A stretch of 63,667 bases of DNA, filler included. It is 8 parts of 8 records of this genome, joined end to end, with 100 filler letters (N's around TTAATTAATTAA, not from the genome) between each part and the next. Parts side by side here need not be neighbours in the genome. Positions count along the whole stretch, not along the records: positions 11,766 to 17,322 come from DRR723986_7594; 7 more parts are not named here. The stretch is one strand, 5' to 3'. Below are positions 5,382-17,322 of the stretch, piece after piece. Each line of letters begins with the position of its first letter. Position 1 is the stretch's first letter. The notes under the pieces were generated by a model. That model was not told the DNA's origin. It saw only the letters and a program-made list of their open reading frames with translations, and did no database searches. A program made the position numbers and the translations under genes.

Positions 5382-6248
5382 CATCGCCTGGTATTTGGCG
5401 ATGTGGTTGCCCACAACCTCATTTGGCTTCTTGAAGGTCATGGTCAGCGTGGTGGATTTCGCCTTGGAGGCCGGGCTGAACCCGCGCACGGTGAAATCAT
5501 CCGCCTCAACCCGCCAGGCGGCGGATTTGAACCCTTCCAGGCGCCGCGCGGTCTGGGCACGCAGGGCAACCTTTTCCATCAGGCTTTCCGCAAAGGCCGC
5601 CACCGTGGCCACCAGCCGCGCATCATCCTGCGCATGGGCGGCGATATCCTGATCCAGCTCCCACAATGCACCATGCAGCGCGACCTGACCATTGTCGGTC
5701 AAGACCTCATCGACCTCGCCCACTTCCACAGTGGTCTCCGTCAGATGTGATGACATCAAATAAGCCGTGGCATTGCCCAGAACATAAAGCGTGACCAATG
5801 CCTCTGCCGCCAACAGCTCGCTGAATTCGCTCTTGCGGGCCGCAGGCAATGACCCTTCCAGATTGGCCCGTTTGAGATCACCCAGCCCCGATTGCTCCGC
5901 CACGTTCTCAGCGACCGCCAGCGCAATCGCTATCGCCCGTCGCAACACATGCAGCACCGTCGCCTGCATCGGGCTGATCAACGTATCGCCCTCATCCGCA
6001 CCTTCGATCCGCGCAATCAATTGCACAGCCCCGGTCGGCACCCTGCGCCGTGTCACAAGCCCCGGTGTGGTGGTGCGAAACCGCCGCCGCGTGCCAAGGC
6101 CCGCAGATTGCTCTGGCACGCTATCATCCCCGGTGGCCTTACCAATCCGCGGCGCATGGTCAAATCCGTCCAACATCGCCTGCGCCATGGGCACATGGCT
6201 TTGAATATCCTCCTCGCGGAGTTCCATCGCATCTGAAATCTGGCTCAT
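5382..6248 (-). CDS. AAA+ ATPase, N-terminal part (ortholog of 12170..14113), truncated by contig end
   Basis: Aligns by eye with the N-terminal ~290 aa of the full ATPase in contig 3 (GTRRRFRxTTPGLVTRR; STTLTMTFKKPNEVVGNHIAKYQAM). Confidence 0.9.
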
Positions 6249-6302
6249 CTTGTAAGGGCCTTCCCTTTTTGGCTCTAAATATTCCCGCCGGAGGCATAAA
6301 AA

Positions 6303-7424
6303 TTAATAACGCAGCACTTGCCCCGATCCGCTCACGACAAATTTTCGCACGGCGGCAAACCCCGGTGGATCCTGCTCTTCCAACACCTGATAGGGGCGTT
6401 GCGGCAGGATGATGCTGCGCTCTTGCCGGGTGGCACCCAGATCGGCGCCCTTGCCGCCAAACGGATCCAGCGCAAAGACCTCCCGTTCAACAGTGCTAAA
6501 CCAGCCCGATTTTTCTTCGATCACGCGGTCGCTGACCAATTCCTCTTCGGTCCAGACCAAAGCCCAATCCTGCCCCTCGGGCGCTTTGGCGCCAGCCAAC
6601 ACATCGCGCAGCGGGCCAGCCTGCCGGGTAAAGGCATGGCTGTACATCGGACCCACATGAAACCGCCGCAACCGCTTGGGGTGCAGGTCGTCAAAATCCT
6701 GATCAAAACCGCGCGCAATTGTCACCAGCTTCAGCCCGCCCAGCGCCTGCGCCGACAGATGCGCCTGCACCTCCGGCCAGCGCCGTTCATCCTTGGGCAG
6801 CCCAACCTTGCCGCTGTCCTCCAGCTCCATCAGATAGATCACCGGCAGGTTCACTTGGCTGTCATAGGTCGCCCAATGCAGCCGGAAGGTGCGCCGCCCT
6901 TCGCTCAGGTTTCCGGTCCAATCGGCCTGCGGATCATTCTGCACCCAGAACAGATCCCCCTTGATCAGCTCCTCATAATAAAGCCGCTGCGACAACGCGA
7001 ATTGCAGCTTGGTCGGCACCTTCCTGTCGCCCAGGATCATTTGGACCATTTCGTTCTTGAGCGTGGCAACCGAAGGCATGTTTTCCAGATGTTTGGCCGC
7101 CTGCTGAGCATCATTGGCCATCGTCATCAGCTCTTCGGCCACCGGAAAACCACTGTCGCGATTGTCGATACTGAGCGAGCCAAAGAACCGCCCCGTTTCG
7201 CGCCCCACCAACAGATACTTTAGGCTCAGCGCCTTGAAGGTGTGGGTCAACATCACCGCATAGCGGGTCAGGATTTCCACCTCATCGCGGTTCAGCTTGC
7301 TTTCCGCCTCCATCACACCGGCCACACGCAACATATGCTGCATGATGCCTTCGAATTTGCGGAAGTACCGGCGCGAGGCAAAGGTATCCATAAGGCCAAC
7401 ATGGTCGCGGGCGGGGTCAGTCAT
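6303..7424 (-). CDS. Conserved hypothetical protein, 373 aa (ortholog of 14167..15285)
   Basis: Full-length similarity to the contig-3 copy (MTDPAxDHVGL...GQVLRY); no recognisable motif. Confidence 0.88.
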   Translation of the reverse strand: MTDPARDHVGLMDTFASRRYFRKFEGIMQHMLRVAGVMEAESKLNRDEVEILTRYAVMLTHTFKALSLKYLLVGRETGRFFGSLSIDNRDSGFPVAEELMTMANDAQQAAKHLENMPSVATLKNEMVQMILGDRKVPTKLQFALSQRLYYEELIKGDLFWVQNDPQADWTGNLSEGRRTFRLHWATYDSQVNLPVIYLMELEDSGKVGLPKDERRWPEVQAHLSAQALGGLKLVTIARGFDQDFDDLHPKRLRRFHVGPMYSHAFTRQAGPLRDVLAGAKAPEGQDWALVWTEEELVSDRVIEEKSGWFSTVEREVFALDPFGGKGADLGATRQERSIILPQRPYQVLEEQDPPGFAAVRKFVVSGSGQVLRY

Positions 7425-7451
7425 CTTTGGGGTTCCGCAAGAACAAGCTGA

Positions 7452-8528
7452 TTATGCCCCATACTGATTGCTGTCATGTTTCTCGATGATCTTCTGGAAC
7501 CGGCGGGCAAAGCGTTCGTCGGCCTTGGCTTTGGCCTCCAGCACTTCGCGGGCAAAGACCATGTGATCTTCGTGCTTCTCCATCATCTCGGCCATCCGCG
7601 CATTGGTGGCAGCACCGATCCCGGCCATGGCAGATTGCGCCTCTTGGTCGGTTTTTACGCCGATCTCGTTGATCCGGTGGGCGACGTCCTGCTGCTGTGC
7701 TGTCTTGAGCGATTTGGTCAGCGCATCATAAAGTACGACCCGCTGCTTGGTGTCTGTCTGCAGCTTGTTGATCAACACCATCTGGGTCGCGGCCTGGTTC
7801 TGCAATGAATCGATCCAGGTTTTGCCCTTCTCAATGTACCGCTCCAGCGTTTGTGATTTCGCCAGCTTGACCTGCTCTTCCTGCACCAACGCATTGTAGC
7901 GGGTGTTCATCTCGGCCAGTTCGGTTTCCAGTTTGGTGCGTTTGGCGGCGTCCGTTTCGCTGGCAATGGCGTTTTCCAGCTTTATAATATCCGGGTCCAT
8001 CCCGCCGATGTCGCTGCGAATGTTCTCAAGCTCACCCACCGTCATCTCGCGTTCGTCCAGAGTCTCGGTCAGGTTGCTTTCAACCTTGACCTTTTGCTCT
8101 TCCAGCATCGCCAACTGCCCTTCGAGCAGCTGCACAATCACGTCGGACTTGCTGATCAAATCCTGCAATTTGTCGTCAATAGAGGCGGAGCGCACCCGTT
8201 CCTGCCGCATACTGTCCGACTTGGCACCGGAAAAGATCCCCACAAAGGTTTCCCAGCCGGTCTTGTTGCGCATTTCATCAAAATCACGGCTGAACCCCGC
8301 GGTCACATCATCCAGCCCCATAATCAGCTCGGCGATATTGGCGTTCATCACCTCGGTATGGGCATGCACGTCCTCAAGCGTGGCATTTTCGATGTCGATC
8401 ATCGCATCGTCGCCCGCTTTCAATTTGGCACGCGCGGTCTCAATCCGGCCGGTCAGTTCGGCGATCTTGCTTTGCGCCTCTGCTACCTGCGCTTGGGATT
8501 CTTTTACCTGTGCATCCAAATTGGCCAT
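7452..8528 (-). CDS. Conserved all-helical / coiled-coil protein (ortholog of 15879..16958)
   Basis: E/Q/K/L-rich heptad pattern, central amphipathic TGWETFVGIF segment; SD GAGGA upstream. Confidence 0.88.
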   Translation of the reverse strand: MANLDAQVKESQAQVAEAQSKIAELTGRIETARAKLKAGDDAMIDIENATLEDVHAHTEVMNANIAELIMGLDDVTAGFSRDFDEMRNKTGWETFVGIFSGAKSDSMRQERVRSASIDDKLQDLISKSDVIVQLLEGQLAMLEEQKVKVESNLTETLDEREMTVGELENIRSDIGGMDPDIIKLENAIASETDAAKRTKLETELAEMNTRYNALVQEEQVKLAKSQTLERYIEKGKTWIDSLQNQAATQMVLINKLQTDTKQRVVLYDALTKSLKTAQQQDVAHRINEIGVKTDQEAQSAMAGIGAATNARMAEMMEKHEDHMVFAREVLEAKAKADERFARRFQKIIEKHDSNQYGA

Positions 8529-8560
8529 CAAACGATCCTCTATTTCAATATCTTAGCCCA

Positions 8561-8590
8561 TATATAGGCAATGTTACGCCGATTTACATC
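8561..8590 (-). promoter_or_regulatory. Conserved operator/promoter of the coiled-coil-AAA operon, copy 1
   Basis: Minus strand GATGTAAATCGGCGTAACATTGCCTATAT; 22/26 identical to 16997..17022; near-palindrome ATGTAA-N7-TAACAT; CCTATAT resembles the alphaproteobacterial RpoH -10. Confidence 0.65.
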
Positions 8591-8648
8591 AGCCTGTTCA
8601 AAAGTTTTTCCGATTGTGCCAAATGCCCCTGATCTTGAAAAGGGCAGA

Positions 8649-9884
8649 TCAATTTGTCTGTTCCTCCGGCCGCACACCGGCCCGCCGAAGGGTCAGCAAC
8701 AACACCAGCAGGCACAAAACCCCCGCCGCCGCGTACCAGACCAAGGTCAGGCGGATATCATCATAAGCCATAGCCGTCCGATCCGAAACCTGCACCGAAG
8801 CGAGCAGCAAACTGCCCACAAACAGCAACCTGCCTGCGAAACTCTGCACGGAGAGGAACGTGGCACGCCCCGCATCGCTCAGCAAAGGTTGCATACGGGC
8901 AATGATAAAGGGCCGCGACAAGGAATTGGGCACCATACGCAAGAACAATATTGCGATGGCAAAGATACTGTTGGTGACGGCCAATGTCGCAATCAGCCCC
9001 ACCTGAATACCAAAGGCCAGCATCAAGAGCGCCGCCAGACCAAACCGCCTGCGCAGCCGCAGCGCAAACAACGTGGCGAGAGCGGACACCAACATCATAA
9101 TCGCAGAGACACCCCCACTGACCATCGGCGCATCCCCTTGCAATCCAATATTGCGCAGGGCTTCGGCGATGAAAGGCTGACCAAAAACAAAAGGAATATG
9201 GCTGAAGCCATACATCAGCACAGACAGCGCGAACAGCCAGACCAAAACCGGAACCCGCATCGCTGTTTGAAAGAGCCGTGCTTGAAACACCGGCCCGGCG
9301 GTCTCGGTTCGGTTCACCTCATGCGGCGGCTCACGGAACCGCAGCGCCACACCAAAACAGGCCGCCTGCGCCGCAGCACCCGCCGCAAAAGCCAGACCAA
9401 ACCCCCATTGCGCCATCAGCCCGCCTGTGAACGCCGACAGGGCAAGCCCGATCAACGAAAACTGCCAACTTCGGGTTTCCTGCGCCTCGGTTTCATCCTC
9501 CCGTCCATCTGCTGCCAGGGATTCATACAAAAACGCATTATCCGTCCCCGATGCAAAAGCCGCACCCGCGCCCAGCAACACTTGCGCCAAGGCAAAGGCG
9601 GCAAAGCTATCCCCAAAAGCGATCAACGCCGCGCCAGCACTGGCCGCAAGCCCCGACGCAATCAGCGTTCGCCTCCGTCCCAGCCGATCCGACATATAAC
9701 CCGACGGAACCTCCATCGCGGTCGTGCCAACATCATAGATCGCATAAAGCAGGATCGCCTCTGCGCCCGACAACTCTTGTTGAAAGAACAGGAACCAGAT
9801 TGCCTGCCAGAACACGAGGTTCTGGAAGAACTTAAACCATGGATACAGCGCAACATTGCGCGCCATAGGGTTGGCGGCGATCAC
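8649..9884 (-). CDS. MFS transporter
   Basis: About 12 TM segments; EVPSGYMSDRLGRRRTL motif A; GAAFASGTDNAFLYESL; GTGA overlap with upstream hydrolase. Confidence 0.9.
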   Translation of the reverse strand: MIAANPMARNVALYPWFKFFQNLVFWQAIWFLFFQQELSGAEAILLYAIYDVGTTAMEVPSGYMSDRLGRRRTLIASGLAASAGAALIAFGDSFAAFALAQVLLGAGAAFASGTDNAFLYESLAADGREDETEAQETRSWQFSLIGLALSAFTGGLMAQWGFGLAFAAGAAAQAACFGVALRFREPPHEVNRTETAGPVFQARLFQTAMRVPVLVWLFALSVLMYGFSHIPFVFGQPFIAEALRNIGLQGDAPMVSGGVSAIMMLVSALATLFALRLRRRFGLAALLMLAFGIQVGLIATLAVTNSIFAIAILFLRMVPNSLSRPFIIARMQPLLSDAGRATFLSVQSFAGRLLFVGSLLLASVQVSDRTAMAYDDIRLTLVWYAAAGVLCLLVLLLTLRRAGVRPEEQTN

Positions 9885-10669
9885 CCGCTGACCAGAGTAT
9901 TGGTCAACTCATGCTCAGGATCGGCCAGTGCATCGATCACATCAAAATGATGTTTGCCCGCATCCACCACCTGCCGTGCGCCCCAAGCCCGCGCCAAGGC
10001 TTCGGCCTGTTCCAAGAATGCCGGACGCTCATCCGCGCCCACCCAGACCGTCACATCCACCCCATGCGGCGGCGTCATGTTCACCGGGCTTTCGGCCATG
10101 GCCTCCGCCTCATCCAACCGCAGATCGGCGTTCATCGAGGTTTGCAACAGCGGCAGCAGATCCGCCACGGGGGAGATTGGCACAACCGTCTTGATCCGGC
10201 CCCGCACATCCCCCGGCAACACCAGCGGATCCATCATCCGCGCTACCAAATGCCCGCCCGCAGAGTGCCCCGCCAAGGCAATCGGCCCAAAGGTTCGGTT
10301 GGCAATGTGGCTTACCGCGGCGGCAATCTGGGTGGTGATTTCACTGATCCGCGCCTGCGGGCACAGCACATAACTTGGCATCGCAACCGCCCAGCCCCGC
10401 GCCAATGCCCCGGCGGCCAGATGCGACCACGCGCTTTTGTCAAAAGCCTTCCAATACCCGCCATGCACAAAGATCAACGTGCCACGCGACACGCCCTCGG
10501 GCTGGAAAAAATCATAGACTTCCCGCTCCGACGCCCCGTATGAGACATCAACCTGCGCCCGCGCCCCAAGTTCGGTGCGAAATGCCGCCGCCGCCGCCGC
10601 CCAACGCGGCGGGTATTCGTCTGCACCATCAATGTAGGCTCCATTGGCATAGGCATCATCAAGCTTCAT
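9881..10669 (-). CDS. Alpha/beta hydrolase (arylformamidase/HSL-like esterase)
   Basis: HGGYW oxyanion motif, GHSAGG nucleophile elbow, C-terminal HHFDV; start taken at MKLDDAYAN. Confidence 0.88.
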   Translation of the reverse strand: MKLDDAYANGAYIDGADEYPPRWAAAAAAFRTELGARAQVDVSYGASEREVYDFFQPEGVSRGTLIFVHGGYWKAFDKSAWSHLAAGALARGWAVAMPSYVLCPQARISEITTQIAAAVSHIANRTFGPIALAGHSAGGHLVARMMDPLVLPGDVRGRIKTVVPISPVADLLPLLQTSMNADLRLDEAEAMAESPVNMTPPHGVDVTVWVGADERPAFLEQAEALARAWGARQVVDAGKHHFDVIDALADPEHELTNTLVSG

Positions 10670-10765
10670 TTGGGTCTCCTGTAGGTATTCCGCCCATAAA
10701 CTGGACCTAGACAATCATAGACTTACTTGCTTTGGGTAGCACAACCAAAACGCGGAGACACCCAA

Positions 10766-11665
10766 ATGACCGACGCTACAACGAATCTCAAATCCCTGCT
10801 CAAAGATCCAAGCCTGCTGGAAACCCGCGCCTATATCGGCGGTAAATGGGTGGATGGCGAGGATGGCACCTTTGACGTGACAAACCCGTCCCGCGGCGAT
10901 GTAATCGCCAAGGTGGCCAACCTCAGCCGCGCTCAGGTGGCCGGCGCCATTTCCCAGGCCGAAGCGGCCCAGAAAGAATGGGCCAGCTGGACCGGCAAGG
11001 AACGTGCAGGCGTTCTGCGCAAATGGTTCGACCTGATGATGGCGAACCAGGACGACCTCGGCGCGATCCTGACCGCAGAGCAAGGCAAACCACTGGCCGA
11101 AGCCAAAGGCGAGGTGGCCTATGGTGCCTCTTTCATCGAGTTTTTCGGCGAAGAGGCCAAACGCATCTACGGTGAAACCATCCCCGGCCACCAGCGCGAC
11201 AAACGCATCACCGTGCTGAAGCAACCCATTGGCGTCGCGGCATCGATCACCCCCTGGAACTTCCCCAATGCAATGATCACCCGCAAAGCCGCACCCGCCT
11301 TGGCCGCCGGTTGTTCTTTCGTCGCCCGCCCCGCCGCCGAAACACCGCTGTCCGCCATCGTCATGGGCGTGCTGGCCGAACGCGCCGGCATCCCCGCAGG
11401 TGTGTTTAATGTGGTGCCGTCCTCCTCGTCCTCTGCAGTGGGCAAGGAGTTTTGTGAAAACCCGGCCGTGCGCAAACTGACCTTCACCGGTTCAACCGAA
11501 GTAGGCCGGATCCTGCTCAAGCAAGCCGCCGACAGCGTCATGAAATGCTCAATGGAACTGGGCGGCAACGCGCCCTTTATCGTGTTCGACGACGCCGATC
11601 TGGATGCCGCTGTCGAAGGCGCGATCATGTGCAAATTCCGCAACAACGGCCAAACCTGCGTCTGC
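10766..11665 (+). CDS. gabD: Succinate-semialdehyde dehydrogenase (NADP+), 3'-truncated
   Basis: EQGKPLAEA, ITPWNFPNAMITRK, FTGSTEVG, MELGGNAPF, KFRNNGQTCVC. Confidence 0.9.
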
Positions 11666-11765: not shown

Positions 11766-11836
11766 GGGGCTGCGCGGCAGGGCCGCGCTGGTTTGGGGTC
11801 GCGGGCGGTTTGGGTTACACGGGGCGATGCAGTGGG

Positions 11837-12169
11837 TCATGCTTTGCGCCGCCCCACCCAATATCCGCCGCCGAAACAAAGCAGGCCAAGTGGCACCAGA
11901 ACCACCGCCGACATGCTCAGCATCAAAGACCAAAGTGTCAGGAATTCACCAAGCCCGTTGATCTGCCCAGCCATCTCGACGCTCAGTCGATACGTCCCCC
12001 ACAACAGCACCACCGCAGGGGGCACGACGACCGCCAATCCCGTTTTAATCGACGCGGCTCGCCCAGAAATCTCTCCCTTACCGAACCTTGCGCCCAACAC
12101 CAGCGCGACGGGCACCGCGACCACGGCACACATCAGACAGGTGTAGAATGAGACCACCAACAGGACCAT
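11837..12169 (-). CDS. Small membrane protein (110 aa, about 3 TM)
   Basis: Three hydrophobic stretches; ATG directly follows the ATPase TAA. Confidence 0.65.
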   Translation of the reverse strand: MVLLVVSFYTCLMCAVVAVPVALVLGARFGKGEISGRAASIKTGLAVVVPPAVVLLWGTYRLSVEMAGQINGLGEFLTLWSLMLSMSAVVLVPLGLLCFGGGYWVGRRKA

Positions 12170-14113
12170 TTAGGCTTTGCCCTCCAGATACCGTTTCTTC
12201 GCGGCCTCTTGGCGGCCGAAATCACGGACCAGTGCGTCGATGGCGACCTCGTCGGATTTGTCGGCATAGCGGAATTCGCTGTCGGCGTAGCGGTTGATCT
12301 CTTGCACCACCATATCCACCGTGATCGGCACCCGCAGGTCGGCGATCATGGCGTGTTTGGTGTCGTAGTCCTGAAACAGGAACAGGTCAGGGTTTTCCAT
12401 CCATTCGTCCGGCAGCTCAAAATCCATCGCGCGGACTTTGACCGCGTCGGTGATGTTCTTGATGGCACGCCCGGTAAAGCGTTCATCTGCCTGTTGGATC
12501 GCCTTGAGATAGGTGCCCAGCTTGGCAATCGTATCGAGCGCGCCGATCTGGCCCTCGACCTGTTCATAGACGCGCAGCAGCCCGTCCTCGTGCGGGCGGG
12601 CGTGGCCCTCGAAACTGGCGGCGACGGCGCGTTTAATCTCCTGCGCGGCAAAGGCGGTGTGATCGCCCAGCGGGATGTCGTGGTTCTTGCCCATCAGCAG
12701 GTTCAGGATGTCGATGTAATCTTCGCGGGTTTGGGGACCATCGACCAGAAACCGGGCCCCGGCGCGTTGGCGCAGGGCGTCATCGACGTTTTCGGGATAG
12801 TTCGAGAACATGCCAAAGGTGCAGTTGCCGCGCACGACGGTGTTGGCGCCTGCAAAGCTTTCCATCAAGACAGCGGTGATTTCGAGTTGCCCGGCTGAGG
12901 ACTGACGATCCCCGCGTTTGCCCGCCAGTTGGTCGATGTCATCAATGGTGCCAAAGCCAATAACCGAGGGGTCCAGAATGGTGTTGATGAACGCCTTGGC
13001 GTTTTGGCCTGATTTGCCCTGATAGCTGTCGATATTGTCGGTGCTGAGGTTCTGATAGCGGAACGGATAGCCCGCGTTCAGGCAGTAATCATTCAACAGT
13101 CCGGCCATCATCTGGATCAACGTCGTCTTGCCGGTGCCCGGTTTGCCATCCCCCATAAAGGTAAAGATGAACCCGCCCAGATCGGCAAAGGGGTTCAACC
13201 GGCGGTCAAAGTCATAGGCCATCAGCATCTTGGCGAGCTTCATCGCCTGATATTTGGCGATGTGGTTGCCGACGACCTCGTTCGGTTTCTTGAACGTCAT
13301 CGTCAGGGTAGTGGATTTCGCTTTCGACGCGGGTTCGAACCCGCGCAGGGTCAGGTCGTCTGCCTCAACATGCCATGCGGACCCGGAAAATCCGGCCACC
13401 TGCGGCGCGCCCTGCGCCCGTTGGGCGGCCTTTTCCATCAACTGCTCGGCAAAGCCGCTGGCCGCTGCGATCAGATGCGCGTCATCGGGGGCTTTGGTGG
13501 CCAAGACCTGATCCAATTCCCACAGGGCCCCATGCAGGGCGAGTTGACCATTGTCGGTCAGCAGTTCGTCAACCTCGCCGACCTCGACCGTGACCTCGGA
13601 CAGGTGCGAAGACAGGAGATAGGCCAGCGCATTGCCCAGAGTGTGGGCGGTAATCAGCGCCTCGCCGGTCAACAGGTCTGAGAATTCGGACTTGCGCGCG
13701 GGGGGCAAATCCCCCGCCAGATTGGCGCGTTTCAAATCGCCCAGCGCGGTTTGATCGGCGTAGATCTCGCCCATCGCGAGGGCAATCGCCACGGCCCGGC
13801 GCAGGGCATGTTGCACCGTCGCCTGTAATGGTGAAGTCAGTGCATCGCCATCATCCGCCGCCTCGATCCGGTCAACCAGATGCACCCCATCGGTGCGCGC
13901 GGTGCGCCGTGTCACCAACCCCGGTGTGGTGGACCGAAACCGCCGCCGCGTGCCAACGCCCGGGCTGCGTTCTGCCGGGGCGTTTGCGGAGGGCGCGACC
14001 GCCGTTGCAATCCGGGGGGCATGTTCGAACCCTTCGAGCAACACGGTTGCGGCCGGGTAATGTTTGCGAATATCCGCCTCGGGCAATTCCATTTGGTCAG
14101 AATTCAAGCTCAT
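12170..14113 (-). CDS. Classic-clade AAA+ ATPase with a long helical N-terminal domain
   Basis: Walker A GKPGTGKT, pore-loop-like IDSYQGKS, Walker B FGTIDDID, SRH SNYPENVDDALRQR; start at MSLNSDQ (SD AGAGG; matches ortholog start). Confidence 0.92.
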   Translation of the reverse strand: MSLNSDQMELPEADIRKHYPAATVLLEGFEHAPRIATAVAPSANAPAERSPGVGTRRRFRSTTPGLVTRRTARTDGVHLVDRIEAADDGDALTSPLQATVQHALRRAVAIALAMGEIYADQTALGDLKRANLAGDLPPARKSEFSDLLTGEALITAHTLGNALAYLLSSHLSEVTVEVGEVDELLTDNGQLALHGALWELDQVLATKAPDDAHLIAAASGFAEQLMEKAAQRAQGAPQVAGFSGSAWHVEADDLTLRGFEPASKAKSTTLTMTFKKPNEVVGNHIAKYQAMKLAKMLMAYDFDRRLNPFADLGGFIFTFMGDGKPGTGKTTLIQMMAGLLNDYCLNAGYPFRYQNLSTDNIDSYQGKSGQNAKAFINTILDPSVIGFGTIDDIDQLAGKRGDRQSSAGQLEITAVLMESFAGANTVVRGNCTFGMFSNYPENVDDALRQRAGARFLVDGPQTREDYIDILNLLMGKNHDIPLGDHTAFAAQEIKRAVAASFEGHARPHEDGLLRVYEQVEGQIGALDTIAKLGTYLKAIQQADERFTGRAIKNITDAVKVRAMDFELPDEWMENPDLFLFQDYDTKHAMIADLRVPITVDMVVQEINRYADSEFRYADKSDEVAIDALVRDFGRQEAAKKRYLEGKA

Positions 14114-14166
14114 GTCACGCAACCTCTTTTAACAATCTTCAAATACGGCAATTCCGGACGCGGCAG

Positions 14167-15285
14167 TCAGTACCGCAAAACCTGCCCGGTGGCGCTGACC
14201 ACAAATTTGCGCACGTCGGCAAACCCCGGCGGGTTCTGTTCGGCCAGCACCTGAAACGGGCGCTGGGGCAGGATGATGGAGCGCTGCATCCGGGTGGTGC
14301 CCGTCTCGGCGCCCTGCCCGCCAAAGGGATCTAGGGCGAAGACCTCGCGCTCAACAGTCGAGAACCAACCGGCGCGCTCTTCGATCACCTGTTCGCTTTC
14401 CAGCTCTTCGGTGGTCCAGGCCAGCGCCCAATCTTGACCCTCGGGAGCTTCGGCCTCGGCCAGAACCCGGCGCAGGGGGCCGGACTGTTCGGTATAGGCC
14501 GACGAATACATCGGCCCCACGTGGATGCGTTTCAGCGACTTGGGGTGCAGATCGTCAAAGTCCTGATCAAACCCCTTGGCAATCGTCAGCAGTTTCAGCC
14601 CCGCCATCGACTGCGCCATCAGGTGGGCCTGTACCTCGGGCCAGCGGCGCTGATCCTTGGGCAGGGTGGTTTTGCCGCTGTCCTCAAGCTCCATCAGGTA
14701 GATGACCGGCAGATTGATCTGACTGTCATAGACGGCCCAATGCAGCATGAACCGCCGCCGGTCGCCATCCGTGCTGATCCAGAGACATTCCGGATCATTG
14801 CGCGCCCAGAACAACTCGCCCTTGAGCAGTTCCTCGTAATACTGCCGCTGGGACAGGGCGAATTGCAGCTTGGTCGGCACCTGTTGTTGGCCGATGATGG
14901 TGCGGACCATATCATCCTTGAGCTCGGCCTCGGACGGCATGTTGGCCAGATGCCGCTGCGCCTGTTGCGCGTCATTGGCCATGGTCAACAATTCTGCTGC
15001 CACCGGAAACCCGCTGTCGCGCTTGTCCATATTGAGGCTGCCAAAGAACCGACCCGTATCCCGCCCGACCAGCAGGTACTTCATGCTGAGCGCGCGAAAG
15101 GTATAGAGCAGCCCCGAGAGATAGCGCGAGATGATCTTGACCTCTTCTTTAGAGATCGCACCCTCTGCCTCCATATTCGCGGCGACACGCAACAGATGCA
15201 CGGTGATCCCCTCAAATTTGCGGAAATACCGTCGCGAGGCAAAGGTGTCGGTCAGGCCAACGTGGTCATGCGCGGGGTCAGTCAT
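14167..15285 (-). CDS. Conserved hypothetical protein, 372 aa
   Basis: Ortholog of 6303..7424; start overlaps the stop of the upstream micropeptide. Confidence 0.88.
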   Translation of the reverse strand: MTDPAHDHVGLTDTFASRRYFRKFEGITVHLLRVAANMEAEGAISKEEVKIISRYLSGLLYTFRALSMKYLLVGRDTGRFFGSLNMDKRDSGFPVAAELLTMANDAQQAQRHLANMPSEAELKDDMVRTIIGQQQVPTKLQFALSQRQYYEELLKGELFWARNDPECLWISTDGDRRRFMLHWAVYDSQINLPVIYLMELEDSGKTTLPKDQRRWPEVQAHLMAQSMAGLKLLTIAKGFDQDFDDLHPKSLKRIHVGPMYSSAYTEQSGPLRRVLAEAEAPEGQDWALAWTTEELESEQVIEERAGWFSTVEREVFALDPFGGQGAETGTTRMQRSIILPQRPFQVLAEQNPPGFADVRKFVVSATGQVLRY

Positions 15286-15460
15286 GGGTATCCTTTTTGT
15301 CCGATTGCAGGCGGTTCATCACGCCGACCGTTATTCCAGCGACACCGCCCGCAACGGCTGTGTGCACCCAAAACGCGACGTCCAAGGCCCATTGCATCAA
15401 AAGCCCTGTCGACACGCCCAGCAGAATGGCCACCGCATAAGATTTCAAAGTCGTTTTCAT
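15278..15460 (-). CDS. Two-TM micropeptide (60 aa)
   Basis: MKTTLKSYAVAILLGVSTGLLMQWALDVAFWVHTAVAGGVAGITVGVMNR...; SD GAGGTG; paralog of 15468..15632. Confidence 0.7.
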   Translation of the reverse strand: MKTTLKSYAVAILLGVSTGLLMQWALDVAFWVHTAVAGGVAGITVGVMNRLQSDKKDTHD

Positions 15461-15467
15461 GATCACC

Positions 15468-15632
15468 TCAGGCCCATCTGCGGATCAGCGCCCCCATGGT
15501 GATAAACCCTGCGGCCACGGCGGCGGCTGTTTGAACGACAACACCCGGATCAAAGGCCCAGTTTACCAGCAAAGCGACCAAAGCGCCGACACCAACGCCG
15601 ATGCTGATCGCTAAGTTCTTTTTCGTATTCAA
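15468..15632 (-). CDS. Two-TM micropeptide (54 aa; below ORF-track cutoff)
   Basis: Hand translation: strong SD GGAGGAGG, TTG start, MNTKKNLAISIGVGVGALVALLVNWAFDPGVVVQTAAAVAAGFITMGALIRRWA*. Confidence 0.7.
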   Translation of the reverse strand: MNTKKNLAISIGVGVGALVALLVNWAFDPGVVVQTAAAVAAGFITMGALIRRWA

Positions 15633-15675
15633 ACTCTGCCTCCTCCATACGGGTGACTACCTCTTGTCTCCGCAC

Positions 15676-15876
15676 TCATTCCTTTAACCTCATACGGCTT
15701 ACCAGCTTAACTGCGCCCACAATTGAAGTAATAAAAACCATTGATCCGACGCCCCATATCGCAGGGGAAGGCCACAGCTTGGCCCAAACTAAGAGAAGCA
15801 CACCAGCAAAACCCAACTGAGCCAACCAAACGGTCCACGAAGAAGGGGTGTTCGACCAAAAAGACCGATCTAGCAC
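15676..15876 (-). CDS. Trp-rich two-TM micropeptide (66 aa)
   Basis: GTG start 2 nt after the coiled-coil gene stop; two hydrophobic segments and a basic C-tail; visibly lower GC than flanks. Confidence 0.6.
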   Translation of the reverse strand: MLDRSFWSNTPSSWTVWLAQLGFAGVLLLVWAKLWPSPAIWGVGSMVFITSIVGAVKLVSRMRLKE

Positions 15877-15878
15877 CC

Positions 15879-16958
15879 TTAGCCCCCGTAAAGGTTCTTA
15901 TCGTGCTTCTCGACGATCGCCGCAAACCGGCGGGCAAAGCGTTCGTCGGCTTTGGCTTTCTTCTCTAGCACGTCGCGGGCGAACACCATGTGGTCCTCGT
16001 GGGCGTCCAGCATGTCGGCCATTTTCTGGTTCGTCGCGGTGCCGATGGCGGCCATGGCGGTTTGCGCCTCTTGGTCGGTTTTGACGCCGATTTCGTTGAT
16101 GCGGTGGGCGACGTCCTGCTGTTGGGCCGTTTTCAGCGAGCTGGTCAGCGCGTCATAGAGCACCACGCGCTGCGCGGTGTCTGTCTGCAGCTTGTTGATC
16201 AGCACCATCTGCGTCGCCGCTTGGTTCTGCAGGGAATCGACCCAGGTTTTGCCCTTTTCGATGTAACGCTCCAGCGTCTGACTTTTGGCCAGCTTGACCT
16301 GTTCGTCCTGCACCAGAGCATTATAGCTCTTGTTCATTTCGGCCAGTTCGGTTTCCAGCTTGGTGCGCGCCGCCGCATCCTGTTCCACCGCGATTTTGTT
16401 TTCCAAGGCGATGATCGCCGGGTCCATACCCAGAATGTCGGCGCGGACATTTTCCAGCTCTTGCACCGTGAATTCCCGGTCATCCAGCGTCGAGGTCAGA
16501 TTTACCTCGACCTTTTCGCGCTGTTCCTCGAGCACCGCCAACTGTCCTTCGAGCAGCTGAACGATCACATCCGACTTGGCGATCAGATCCTGCAGCTTGT
16601 CGTCAATGTTTGCAGAGCGGATTCGCTCCTGACGCATGGAATCCGACTTGGCCCCGGCAAAAATGCCAACAAAGCTCTCCCATCCGGTTTTCGAGCGCAT
16701 CTCGTCAAAATCTTTGGAAAACGCGCTGGTCACATCATCCAAGCCCATGATCAGCTCGGCAATATTGGCGTTCATCACGTCCGTATGGGCGTGCACATCC
16801 TCGAGCGTGGCGTTTTCGATATCAATATCGGCCTCGCCCGCATCAATTTTGGACCGTGCAGATTCAATGCGCCCGGTCAGACCTTGGATCTTGGCCTGAC
16901 TTTCTTTTACCTTCTGCTGCGTTTCCCGAATGATTGCATCAAATTCTGAGTCAGACAC
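15879..16958 (-). CDS. Conserved all-helical / coiled-coil protein, 359 aa
   Basis: Ortholog of 7452..8528; GTG start with AAGGGGA SD. Confidence 0.88.
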   Translation of the reverse strand: MSDSEFDAIIRETQQKVKESQAKIQGLTGRIESARSKIDAGEADIDIENATLEDVHAHTDVMNANIAELIMGLDDVTSAFSKDFDEMRSKTGWESFVGIFAGAKSDSMRQERIRSANIDDKLQDLIAKSDVIVQLLEGQLAVLEEQREKVEVNLTSTLDDREFTVQELENVRADILGMDPAIIALENKIAVEQDAAARTKLETELAEMNKSYNALVQDEQVKLAKSQTLERYIEKGKTWVDSLQNQAATQMVLINKLQTDTAQRVVLYDALTSSLKTAQQQDVAHRINEIGVKTDQEAQTAMAAIGTATNQKMADMLDAHEDHMVFARDVLEKKAKADERFARRFAAIVEKHDKNLYGG

Positions 16959-16990
16959 GGCTCAAATCCCCTTTTGTTACTGTAATACTC

Positions 16991-17022
16991 ATTAGTTAGG
17001 TAATGTAACGGTGATTTACATC
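16991..17022 (-). promoter_or_regulatory. Conserved operator/promoter of the coiled-coil-AAA operon, copy 2
   Basis: Perfect inverted repeat ATGTAA-N7-TTACAT (17003..17021) followed on the minus strand by CCTAACT; nearly the same distance to start codon as copy 1. Confidence 0.65.
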
Positions 17023-17307
17023 CCCCCAACACACTCTTTCCGCGAAAGTTTTGCAAACCTGCCTCAGAAAGAAAACACATATCTTTACCGCACAAACATG
17101 TGACATGCAGGTACACAGATCCGCCGATCATGCACTTTTTTCAAATTGCCCCTTGAACGAATCCCGATCCCGTTCCATATCAGATGCGCTTACGTTATTC
17201 CTATTCGACCACTGTCTCCCGTTTACCGGCACTCAGTCTTTCGATCCAGGCCGACTACGCAGGGCTACCGCACTCAAGCAGGTAGCAACATTATGGAGAC
17301 TACGGAT

Positions 17308-17322
17308 ATGGCCACTGGCACC
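17308..17322 (+). CDS. Probable start of a cold-shock (CspA-family) protein, truncated
   Basis: SD GGAGA then MATGT, the usual alphaproteobacterial Csp N-terminus (MATGTVKWFN); only 5 codons visible. Confidence 0.45.

Follow-up and report, generated by a model that had tools for sequence, protein, structure and literature searches.

The DNA analysed here, which we call the window, is a stretch of 63,667 nucleotides (nt) made of eight contigs joined by runs of N, and its third contig carries, between two conserved genes of one operon, a slot filled with three short open reading frames (ORFs) for candidate membrane peptides. This slot measures 593 nt from the stop of a coiled-coil gene to the start of a gene of 372 amino acids (aa), and the operon is laid out as follows in its direction of reading:

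11766..17322: contig 3, operon on the minus strand
15879..16958, minus strand: coiled-coil gene, 359 aa, all-helical, upstream flank of the slot
15676..15876, minus strand: 66-aa ORF (cassette 1), GTG start 2 nt past the coiled-coil stop, two hydrophobic stretches
15468..15632, minus strand: 54-aa ORF (cassette 2), TTG start, GGAGGAGG at -14..-7, two hydrophobic stretches
15278..15460 from its ATG, minus strand: 60-aa ORF (cassette 3), two hydrophobic stretches
14167..15285, minus strand: 372-aa gene outside known families, downstream flank of the slot
12170..14122, minus strand: AAA+ ATPase gene of the classical clade, 650 aa (Pfam AAA, expectation value (E) 1.1e-11)

Hydrophobic stretches were called by Kyte-Doolittle windows. 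Translated from a GTG further upstream, at 15466, cassette 3 would encode 62 aa. The successive gaps along the slot are 2, 43 and 7 nt, after which cassette 3, stop codon included, runs 8 nt into the beginning of the 372-aa gene. Coordinates and anatomy thus match a preliminary description of this DNA, made from the letters alone, which had reported three hydrophobic hairpin peptides of 66, 54 and 60 aa in ~590 nt. The 54-aa ORF is dropped when ORFs are listed with a 60-aa minimum and appears at a 40-aa minimum; its 52-aa ortholog is annotated in NCBI as a hypothetical protein. As that description had also proposed, cassettes 2 and 3 are paralogous: their products share 19/50 identical positions (38%) by BLASTP with E 2e-6. 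Judged by its sequence, the pair is a tandem duplicate, and DNA repeats spaced 169 nt across it fit this origin. The 66-aa product is unrelated to the other two, and its ORF is indeed more AT-rich, with a G+C content (GC) of 0.498 and a third-codon-position GC (GC3) of 0.507 compared to 0.570/0.655 and 0.546/0.656 in the other two ORFs and a GC3 of 0.73-0.78 in the flanking genes. The window slot showed neither terminator-like nor promoter-like sites on the gene strand, and no Rfam family was found there.

The same gene order, i.e., 359-aa coiled-coil gene, 372/373-aa gene and AAA+ ATPase gene, is found on the minus strand of contig 2, where only 27 nt occupy the corresponding position, as had been described before:

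5382..11665: contig 2, operon on the minus strand
7452..8531, minus strand: coiled-coil ortholog
7425..7451, minus strand: slot spacer of 27 nt with a 19-nt remnant of a 73-aa membrane gene
6303..7424, minus strand: 373-aa ortholog of the 372-aa gene

The two contigs had initially been taken for two paralogous copies of one operon, one of them with an insertion, and this idea has to be corrected. Over 6262 nt, contig 2 shares 94.5% identity with a locus of Sulfitobacter mediterraneus (L078). Contig 3 matches two loci (L001 and L002) of an unclassified, EL53-type Rhodobacteraceae lineage at 92.5-92.9% identity, while the two contigs share only 73.4% nt identity with each other. The 372-aa gene is present in 88 of 201 sampled family genomes and has a single match in 85 of these 88, the other three genomes showing fragments or a 43-residue partial copy. 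Because of these identities and the single-copy nature of the gene, the comparison is one of orthologous loci from two genera, as far as sequence can tell, and not of two copies in one genome. The GC of the window contigs spans 0.486 to 0.725, and the window is therefore a mixed assembly.

Slot content was tabulated across relatives of the 372-aa gene. Scanning one genome per species gave 432 of them, of which the best 80 loci were kept; the slot set of 80 comprises the 78 of these best 80 loci that had both flanks, plus both window contigs. In this set the slot is -4 to 682 nt long (median 277). In 57/80 loci it contains one or more operon-strand ORFs that are at least 40 aa long and include a membrane-like segment, 19 loci have an empty slot (<100 nt), and another four have at least 100 nt without any membrane ORF. 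Membrane-like segments are a matter of one strand, occurring in 72 of 131 operon-strand slot ORFs of at least 40 aa versus 1 of 86 on the opposite strand, and the ORFs that carry them are tightly fitted between their neighbors: one starts -4 to +12 nt from the upstream stop in at least 36 of the 57 filled loci, and one ends -12 to +8 nt from the downstream start in 41 of them. Altogether, the 71 membrane ORFs form ~42 BLAST families (12 with several members and 30 singletons), which is an upper bound because some singletons are probably overlapping frames.

The distribution of these families follows the core genes only loosely. In a FastTree phylogeny built from both flanking proteins with 76 rows, the 35 slot states require 50 changes, compared to a mean of 56.4 and a minimum of 53 when slot labels were shuffled 200 times. 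Sister rows with near-identical cores carry differing slot content, and slot families 2, 4 and 7 span more than one genus with cross-genus members that are strongly diverged. The slot is thus almost certainly hypervariable, as had been suggested from the two contigs, and its content across the 80 loci is far from invariant.

In several loci of Leisingera and Cribrihabitans (L045, L050-L052, L054, L056, L057, L063 and L069), the 3' part of the slot is filled by a conserved GC-rich element of ~100-130 nt directly upstream of the 372-aa start (locus coordinates ~6880-7000), which mimics an ORF family by producing false ORFs. It folds as a long hairpin with 28 predicted pairs, two of them with compensatory changes, shows an extra inserted stem in three loci, and has no Rfam match.

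Turnover of the slot is visible at short range. The window combines cassettes of 66, 54 and 60 aa; L002 has the 66-aa cassette, a broken version of the 54-aa one and the 60-aa cassette, and L001 an unrelated 59-aa cassette followed by versions of 52 and 60 aa. The breakpoints of the replacement between L001 and the window fall at gene borders. Metagenome contigs from two studies follow the window sequence up to a point directly upstream of the 54-aa start and from there continue with an alternative first cassette that resembles L001. In L002, the 54-aa homolog (~6670-6830) is interrupted by a 59-nt deletion; this locus comes from a metagenome-assembled genome, and the broken copy may be a pseudogene or an assembly error. 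Contig 2 lacks the 73-aa membrane gene of L078, a presence/absence difference of 206 nt, and its short spacer looks like the product of a deletion that left the 19-nt remnant behind.

Traces of the downstream flank were also found inside filled slots. Both L055 and L014 carry a copy of the opening 44-50 nt of the 372-aa gene, at 84-86% identity. In L055 this copy (~6540-6600) supplies the N-terminus of a cassette protein, and in L014 it sits between the two cassettes of that locus. Such copies are the expected residue of recombination anchored in the flanks. Genome G140 has a 43-residue partial copy of the 372-aa gene ~530 nt upstream of the gene itself. Between the window and L001, synonymous divergence is 0.68-0.89 in the two shared cassettes versus 0.21-0.34 in the flanks; this two-to-fourfold difference could reflect older alleles, a separate recombination history or weaker codon constraint. 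Both routes by which the slot had been proposed to collect its genes are supported by these data, duplication by the 54/60 paralog pair with its 169-nt repeat spacing, and acquisition or replacement by a first cassette that differs from the nearest genome while the other two are kept, by the breakpoint shared between two metagenome studies and by the low GC3 of the 66-aa ORF. Renewal of the slot would proceed through whole-gene replacement, deletion and tandem duplication, with the highly conserved flanks most likely acting as recombination anchors.

Coding-type conservation, which had been named as a check, is present for two of the three window ORFs. Compared to L001, the 60-aa ORF has 20 synonymous and eight nonsynonymous changes and a ratio of nonsynonymous to synonymous rates (dN/dS) of 0.09 (0.07 against L002), and the 54-aa ORF has 21 and 15 changes with a dN/dS of 0.16, while the flanking genes reach 0.02-0.05 in the same comparison. 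The TTG start of the 54-aa ORF aligns with the ATG of its 52-aa ortholog in L001. Seven other multi-member slot families gave dN/dS values of 0.18-0.39 from unsaturated pairs, and family F17 gave 0.65 from a single pair. The 54- and 60-aa ORFs are therefore very probably real genes. For the 66-aa ORF, comparison is limited to L002, with five synonymous and six nonsynonymous changes and a dN/dS of 0.38. Besides the window and L002, it was seen in just one metagenome contig, where none of the variants listed (three synonymous, three nonsynonymous) introduces a stop. No homolog was found among proteins of near length (longer or shorter forms were not searched). We consider it somewhat likely to be a real gene; it may be a recent or foreign addition, and its status is uncertain.

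Outside the sampled loci, these sequences are rare. The 60-aa protein is represented by two clusters in a set of 5.8 billion proteins (98% and 88% identical), one of which carries the NCBI annotation hypothetical protein DS909_11830, and a profile of the 54/60 pair is strong in 2 of 401 family genomes, in both cases with the match in the slot. A further 12 weak matches to this profile (E 2.4e-4 to 8.8e-3) were taken as chance, 11 of them lying inside open frames of 215-2107 aa. An exact sequence look-up of five window proteins found none of them, and the slot DNA had no match in plasmid and phage collections. Among the sequencing runs searched, none contains half of the sampled window words, with RNA runs at 0.04-0.06.

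It could be argued that some or all of the slot ORFs, and above all the 66-aa ORF, lack any function and are frames that arose recently, are decaying or are spurious, within an intergenic stretch that is growing. The 66-aa ORF itself invites this explanation with its GC3 far below that of the flanking genes, its lack of homologs and a dN/dS based on 11 changes, and so do the broken 54-aa homolog of L002 and the four loci with at least 100 nt of slot but no membrane ORF. Canonical Shine-Dalgarno cores precede only 10 of the 71 slot ORFs when these are taken from their longest start, compared to a background of 8.6%, although this count is uninformative. The explanation is nevertheless very unlikely: the 54- and 60-aa ORFs and other slot families are under purifying selection, membrane-like ORFs show an extreme strand asymmetry, replacement boundaries are exact at the level of genes, and the variants of the 66-aa ORF listed in the metagenome contig spare its reading frame.

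The genes around the slot form a conserved core. The coiled-coil protein shows 88% mean column identity over 16 sequences, C-terminus included, and neither it nor the 372-aa protein matches any family above cut-off in Pfam, NCBIfam or PADLOC. Relatives of the 372-aa protein are found in 508 representative clusters at E <=0.001, yet none of 58 distant homologs matches Pfam; outside the Rhodobacteraceae the gene is rare (5 of 401 class genomes). In two distant operon versions, the slot is empty and measures 59-71 nt. Little space usually separates the 372-aa gene from the ATPase gene (median 58 nt), and genes with DUF6638 and DUF1523 lie past the ATPase gene in 69/82 and 68/82 rows, respectively. 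The core was not found in viral contigs. For the ATPase, the nearest solved sequences are i-AAA protease (8e-6), fidgetin-like 1 (3e-5) and Vps4 (8e-4), with matches overall reaching to 9e-4; they support membership of the classical clade only, since Vps4 is weaker than i-AAA protease and fidgetin-like 1. Inspected by eye, the protein has a standard Walker A motif and reads D-D in the Walker B region, where classical AAA proteins usually have D-E.

Structure-based searches added little to this picture. AlphaFold2 models were poor, with predicted local distance difference test (pLDDT) scores of 55.7 (372-aa protein) and 58.2 (coiled-coil protein), and structure searches hit only helical hairpins or coiled coils of a generic kind, with a best Z of 6.2 over 65 residues. 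With these poor models Foldseek gave no match at E <=0.001; for the coiled-coil model (pLDDT 58), considered as a candidate PspA/ESCRT-III-type partner of a Vps4-type ATPase, Vipp1/PspA rows appeared at E 0.05-0.13 among generic coiled coils and without a Pfam match. Profile searches of both core proteins against PDB sequences returned nothing, and the ESM Atlas held no usable match for the 372-aa protein. For the coiled-coil protein, it returned the protein's own kind plus a neighbor cluster in which 10% of members carry TelA. An identity with TelA (PF05816) was rejected: 0/16 members match at E <=10, the TelA profile finds a different gene in genomes G001 and G003, and hhalign of the coiled-coil protein with those two TelA-profile sequences gives a probability of 0.2. 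At the level of titles and abstracts, we found no literature on DUF6638 or DUF5928 and DUF1523 only in an unrelated context, and nothing on this locus in work on small membrane proteins, cassettes or hotspots of the Roseobacter group or Rhodobacteraceae, nor a defense hotspot described for this group (supplements not covered).

The gap between the ATPase and DUF6638 genes is a second variable slot, 52-1566 nt long with a median of 758 nt. In contig 3, its first cargo begins at the ATPase stop:

11837..12169, minus strand: 110-aa multi-pass membrane ORF

This ORF has a tblastn match in 3/82 rows. Several recognized defense-type genes are found in this part of the cluster. Pfam at E <=1e-4 matched 8 of 74 proteins encoded in the gaps between the 372-aa, ATPase and DUF6638 genes (putAbiC four, Mrr two, AbiJ_NTD4 one, HNH one), and PADLOC found mREase_IV/PDC-S02, PDC-S31 and AbiP-type matches in 5 of 94 scanned proteins. 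A BLAST family of 17 second-slot proteins shares an N-terminal two-helix module, with a putAbiC domain in four of them. In the first slot, DUF4279 exceeds the Pfam cut-off in 2 of 56 scanned proteins (L010 and L053); two reports on polymorphic toxin systems describe it as one of their immunity families, FdL-Imm5 (PMC9424270, PMC13304343). Four genomes carry a family-7 cassette, three of them in the slot. In genome G103 (locus L104), where the 372-aa gene was not found, a 113-aa family-7 cassette lies between a gene for a MarR-type regulator and the DUF1523 gene, a neighborhood that is the usual site of the core.

One alternative to be weighed against these data is that the slot proteins are membrane tethers or adaptors of a soluble machine made of the coiled-coil protein, the 372-aa protein and the ATPase, for which any small hairpin would suffice, so that low sequence constraint would lead to frequent replacement. 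It would explain why the conserved coiled-coil, 372-aa, ATPase and DUF6638 proteins lack membrane-like segments while the variable ones have them, why start/stop overlaps link slot genes to both neighbors and why the slot is filled in 57/80 loci; classical-clade AAA ATPases are generally known to remodel or extract proteins, which would suit such a machine. Small membrane proteins that tether or tune larger complexes are well known, e.g., Prli42 with the stressosome, LiaI with LiaH, PspB/PspC with PspA, KdpF and CydX, and they resemble the slot proteins in being 30-100 aa long with one or two helices and encoded in or beside the operon of their partner. However, these small proteins and their partners are conserved together, while slot proteins of different species are unrelated to each other and a quarter of loci have none. 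The core seems to work without a slot gene, as the 19 empty loci and the two distant operon versions have none, and the ~42 unrelated families would each need to bind the same conserved partner. Furthermore, two slots hold a soluble protein of an immunity family, and the family-7 cassette persists where the core was not found. We therefore regard a tether function as unlikely, though it deserves to be taken seriously.

A different explanation is that the cluster itself is an undescribed modular defense system and that the genes of both slots, for small membrane proteins, AbiC-like proteins and Mrr and HNH nucleases, are its swappable effectors. Several observations are compatible with this idea, beginning with an architecture in which a conserved core that includes an ATPase is combined with variable genes for membrane proteins or nucleases. 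An ORF of at least 75 aa starts -10 to +15 nt from the ATPase stop in 36 of 62 filled downstream slots, and the filled states of the two slots are correlated (51/1/9/5; Fisher p 0.0012, uncorrected for relatedness). PADLOC similarities are weak (ATPase to TRIP13, E 2.4e-4, and IetA, E 0.0095; coiled-coil protein to NsnC, E 0.0063) and, moreover, generic. Unlike typical mobile defense systems, the core is single-copy and syntenic, follows taxonomy and is subject to very strong purifying selection (dN/dS 0.02-0.05), and viral contigs gave no sign of it. No fixed pairing of families between the two slots was seen, and the Mrr, AbiC and AbiJ types are generally known as stand-alone genes. These points make a dedicated defense system with swappable effectors quite improbable. 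A further reading would have the cluster as an undescribed, vertically inherited modular system of Rhodobacteraceae with two exchange slots, in which small membrane proteins from the first slot and AbiC-like, nuclease and multi-pass membrane proteins from the second act as interchangeable output modules driven by the ATPase core. This reading is also rather improbable; if true, the three window peptides would be working parts of a new membrane-acting defense or stress machine instead of passengers.

Comparison with known systems helps to place the slot. Core defense hotspots or islands between conserved marker genes have been described for Pseudomonas aeruginosa (PMC10250203), and P2/P4 hotspots are another example (PMC9122126). 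As in such hotspots, cargo at a fixed site between conserved genes differs here between close relatives while the flanks are conserved. Recognized defense-type genes were seen in the sister slot (Pfam 8/74, PADLOC 5/94), with PADLOC at 0/45 in the first slot. Unlike these hotspots, the slot lies inside an operon and receives one to three promoterless-looking genes of 50-170 aa that are coupled to both flanks, its cargo consists almost entirely of small membrane proteins outside known families, and no mobile-element genes are present among the neighbors scanned (L001 only). Integron arrays likewise consist of short promoterless same-strand ORFs in variable number and order that are read from an upstream promoter. 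However, the slot array has conserved operon genes at either end, and we found no attC-type inverted repeats at the cassette borders, with 15200..15950 containing only repeats of chance size besides those spaced 169 nt in the 54/60 pair. Pfam detected no integrase or recombinase among 10 neighboring ORFs in 15 kb of L001, the one locus scanned, where the neighbors are a peptidase, a BCCT transporter, a cold-shock domain protein and three DUFs.

Immunity to membrane-acting toxins is commonly conferred by small membrane proteins, and the slot shares with the orphan immunity arrays of polymorphic toxin loci its tandem, fast-evolving, strain-specific and partly paralogous small genes. The likeness to immunity arrays drawn in the preliminary description has indirect support: DUF4279 occupies the same slot in two loci and the sister slot carries defense-type cargo, but the window peptides match no immunity family, and no toxin gene with a variable C-terminal domain lies upstream. 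The hydrophobic toxins of type I toxin-antitoxin systems are single-helix peptides with their own promoter and an antisense RNA, and the two helices, the position inside an operon and the coupling to neighbors speak against this candidate.

Taken together, we favor with a probability of about 50% the reading that the slot ORFs are real accessory genes, coupled in translation to their neighbors, in a cargo hotspot that lies within an operon and is probably conflict-related. According to this reading, the three ORFs would encode small two-pass inner-membrane proteins, translated from a transcript shared with the surrounding conserved genes to which they are coupled, within a coiled-coil, 372-aa and AAA+ ATPase gene cluster that is a conserved, single-copy chromosomal feature of many Rhodobacteraceae. 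The cargo would comprise fast-evolving, lineage-restricted membrane proteins whose most probable role is immunity to membrane-acting toxins or phage exclusion/abortive infection and not that of fixed core subunits. What favors a conflict role is the defense-type cargo of the sister slot, together with the two DUF4279 loci and a spread of slot content on the core tree that is close to random; taken by itself, this part of the reading is tentative and falls somewhat short of even odds. Tight coupling to the core genes keeps the subunit and swappable-effector explanations alive.

Several points weigh against the favored reading. The coupling to both core genes and the filled slots of 57/80 loci would equally fit a needed accessory subunit. 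The coiled-coil gene is conserved right through to its final residues, so that the slot has no variable-ended toxin gene next to it. Of the 56 scanned slot proteins, 54 match no Pfam family above cut-off, none of 45 first-slot and window proteins matches PADLOC, and for the three peptides of the window no family in Pfam, NCBIfam or PADLOC exceeds its cut-off; the case for a conflict role therefore comes from neighbors and two loci. The core-less genome that keeps its cassette is a single case, cross-genus cassette pairs have saturated synonymous divergence so that old polymorphism and transfer are indistinguishable, and the 66-aa ORF is weak, with a GC3 close to its overall GC besides its dN/dS and missing homologs. 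The sole contig from an RNA library spans 15007..15354, with 17 differences, and may derive from DNA.

For many marine genomes of the Roseobacter group, the slot would offer a fixed and easily located site at which dozens of unannotated families of small membrane proteins gather and turn over. It may serve as a source of candidate immunity, phage-exclusion and membrane-modulating micropeptides that are mostly invisible to standard family libraries, and it suggests that cargo hotspots can sit within a strongly conserved, translationally coupled operon without integrase or repeats. The three-gene cluster itself merits experiments given its spread over 88 of 201 sampled family genomes and a 372-aa protein that forms 508 representative clusters and lacks a Pfam family.

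Beyond the cluster, cobalamin riboswitches (Rfam RF00174, 108-110 bits) lie several kb past it in L045 (14448..14645) and L063 (13813..14010). In the window, contig 4 (17423..23470) has a GC of 0.725 and open frames of ~2000 aa on both strands; its plus-strand product is rich in repeated segments resembling those of surface proteins, and the contig clearly belongs to another organism than contigs 2 and 3.

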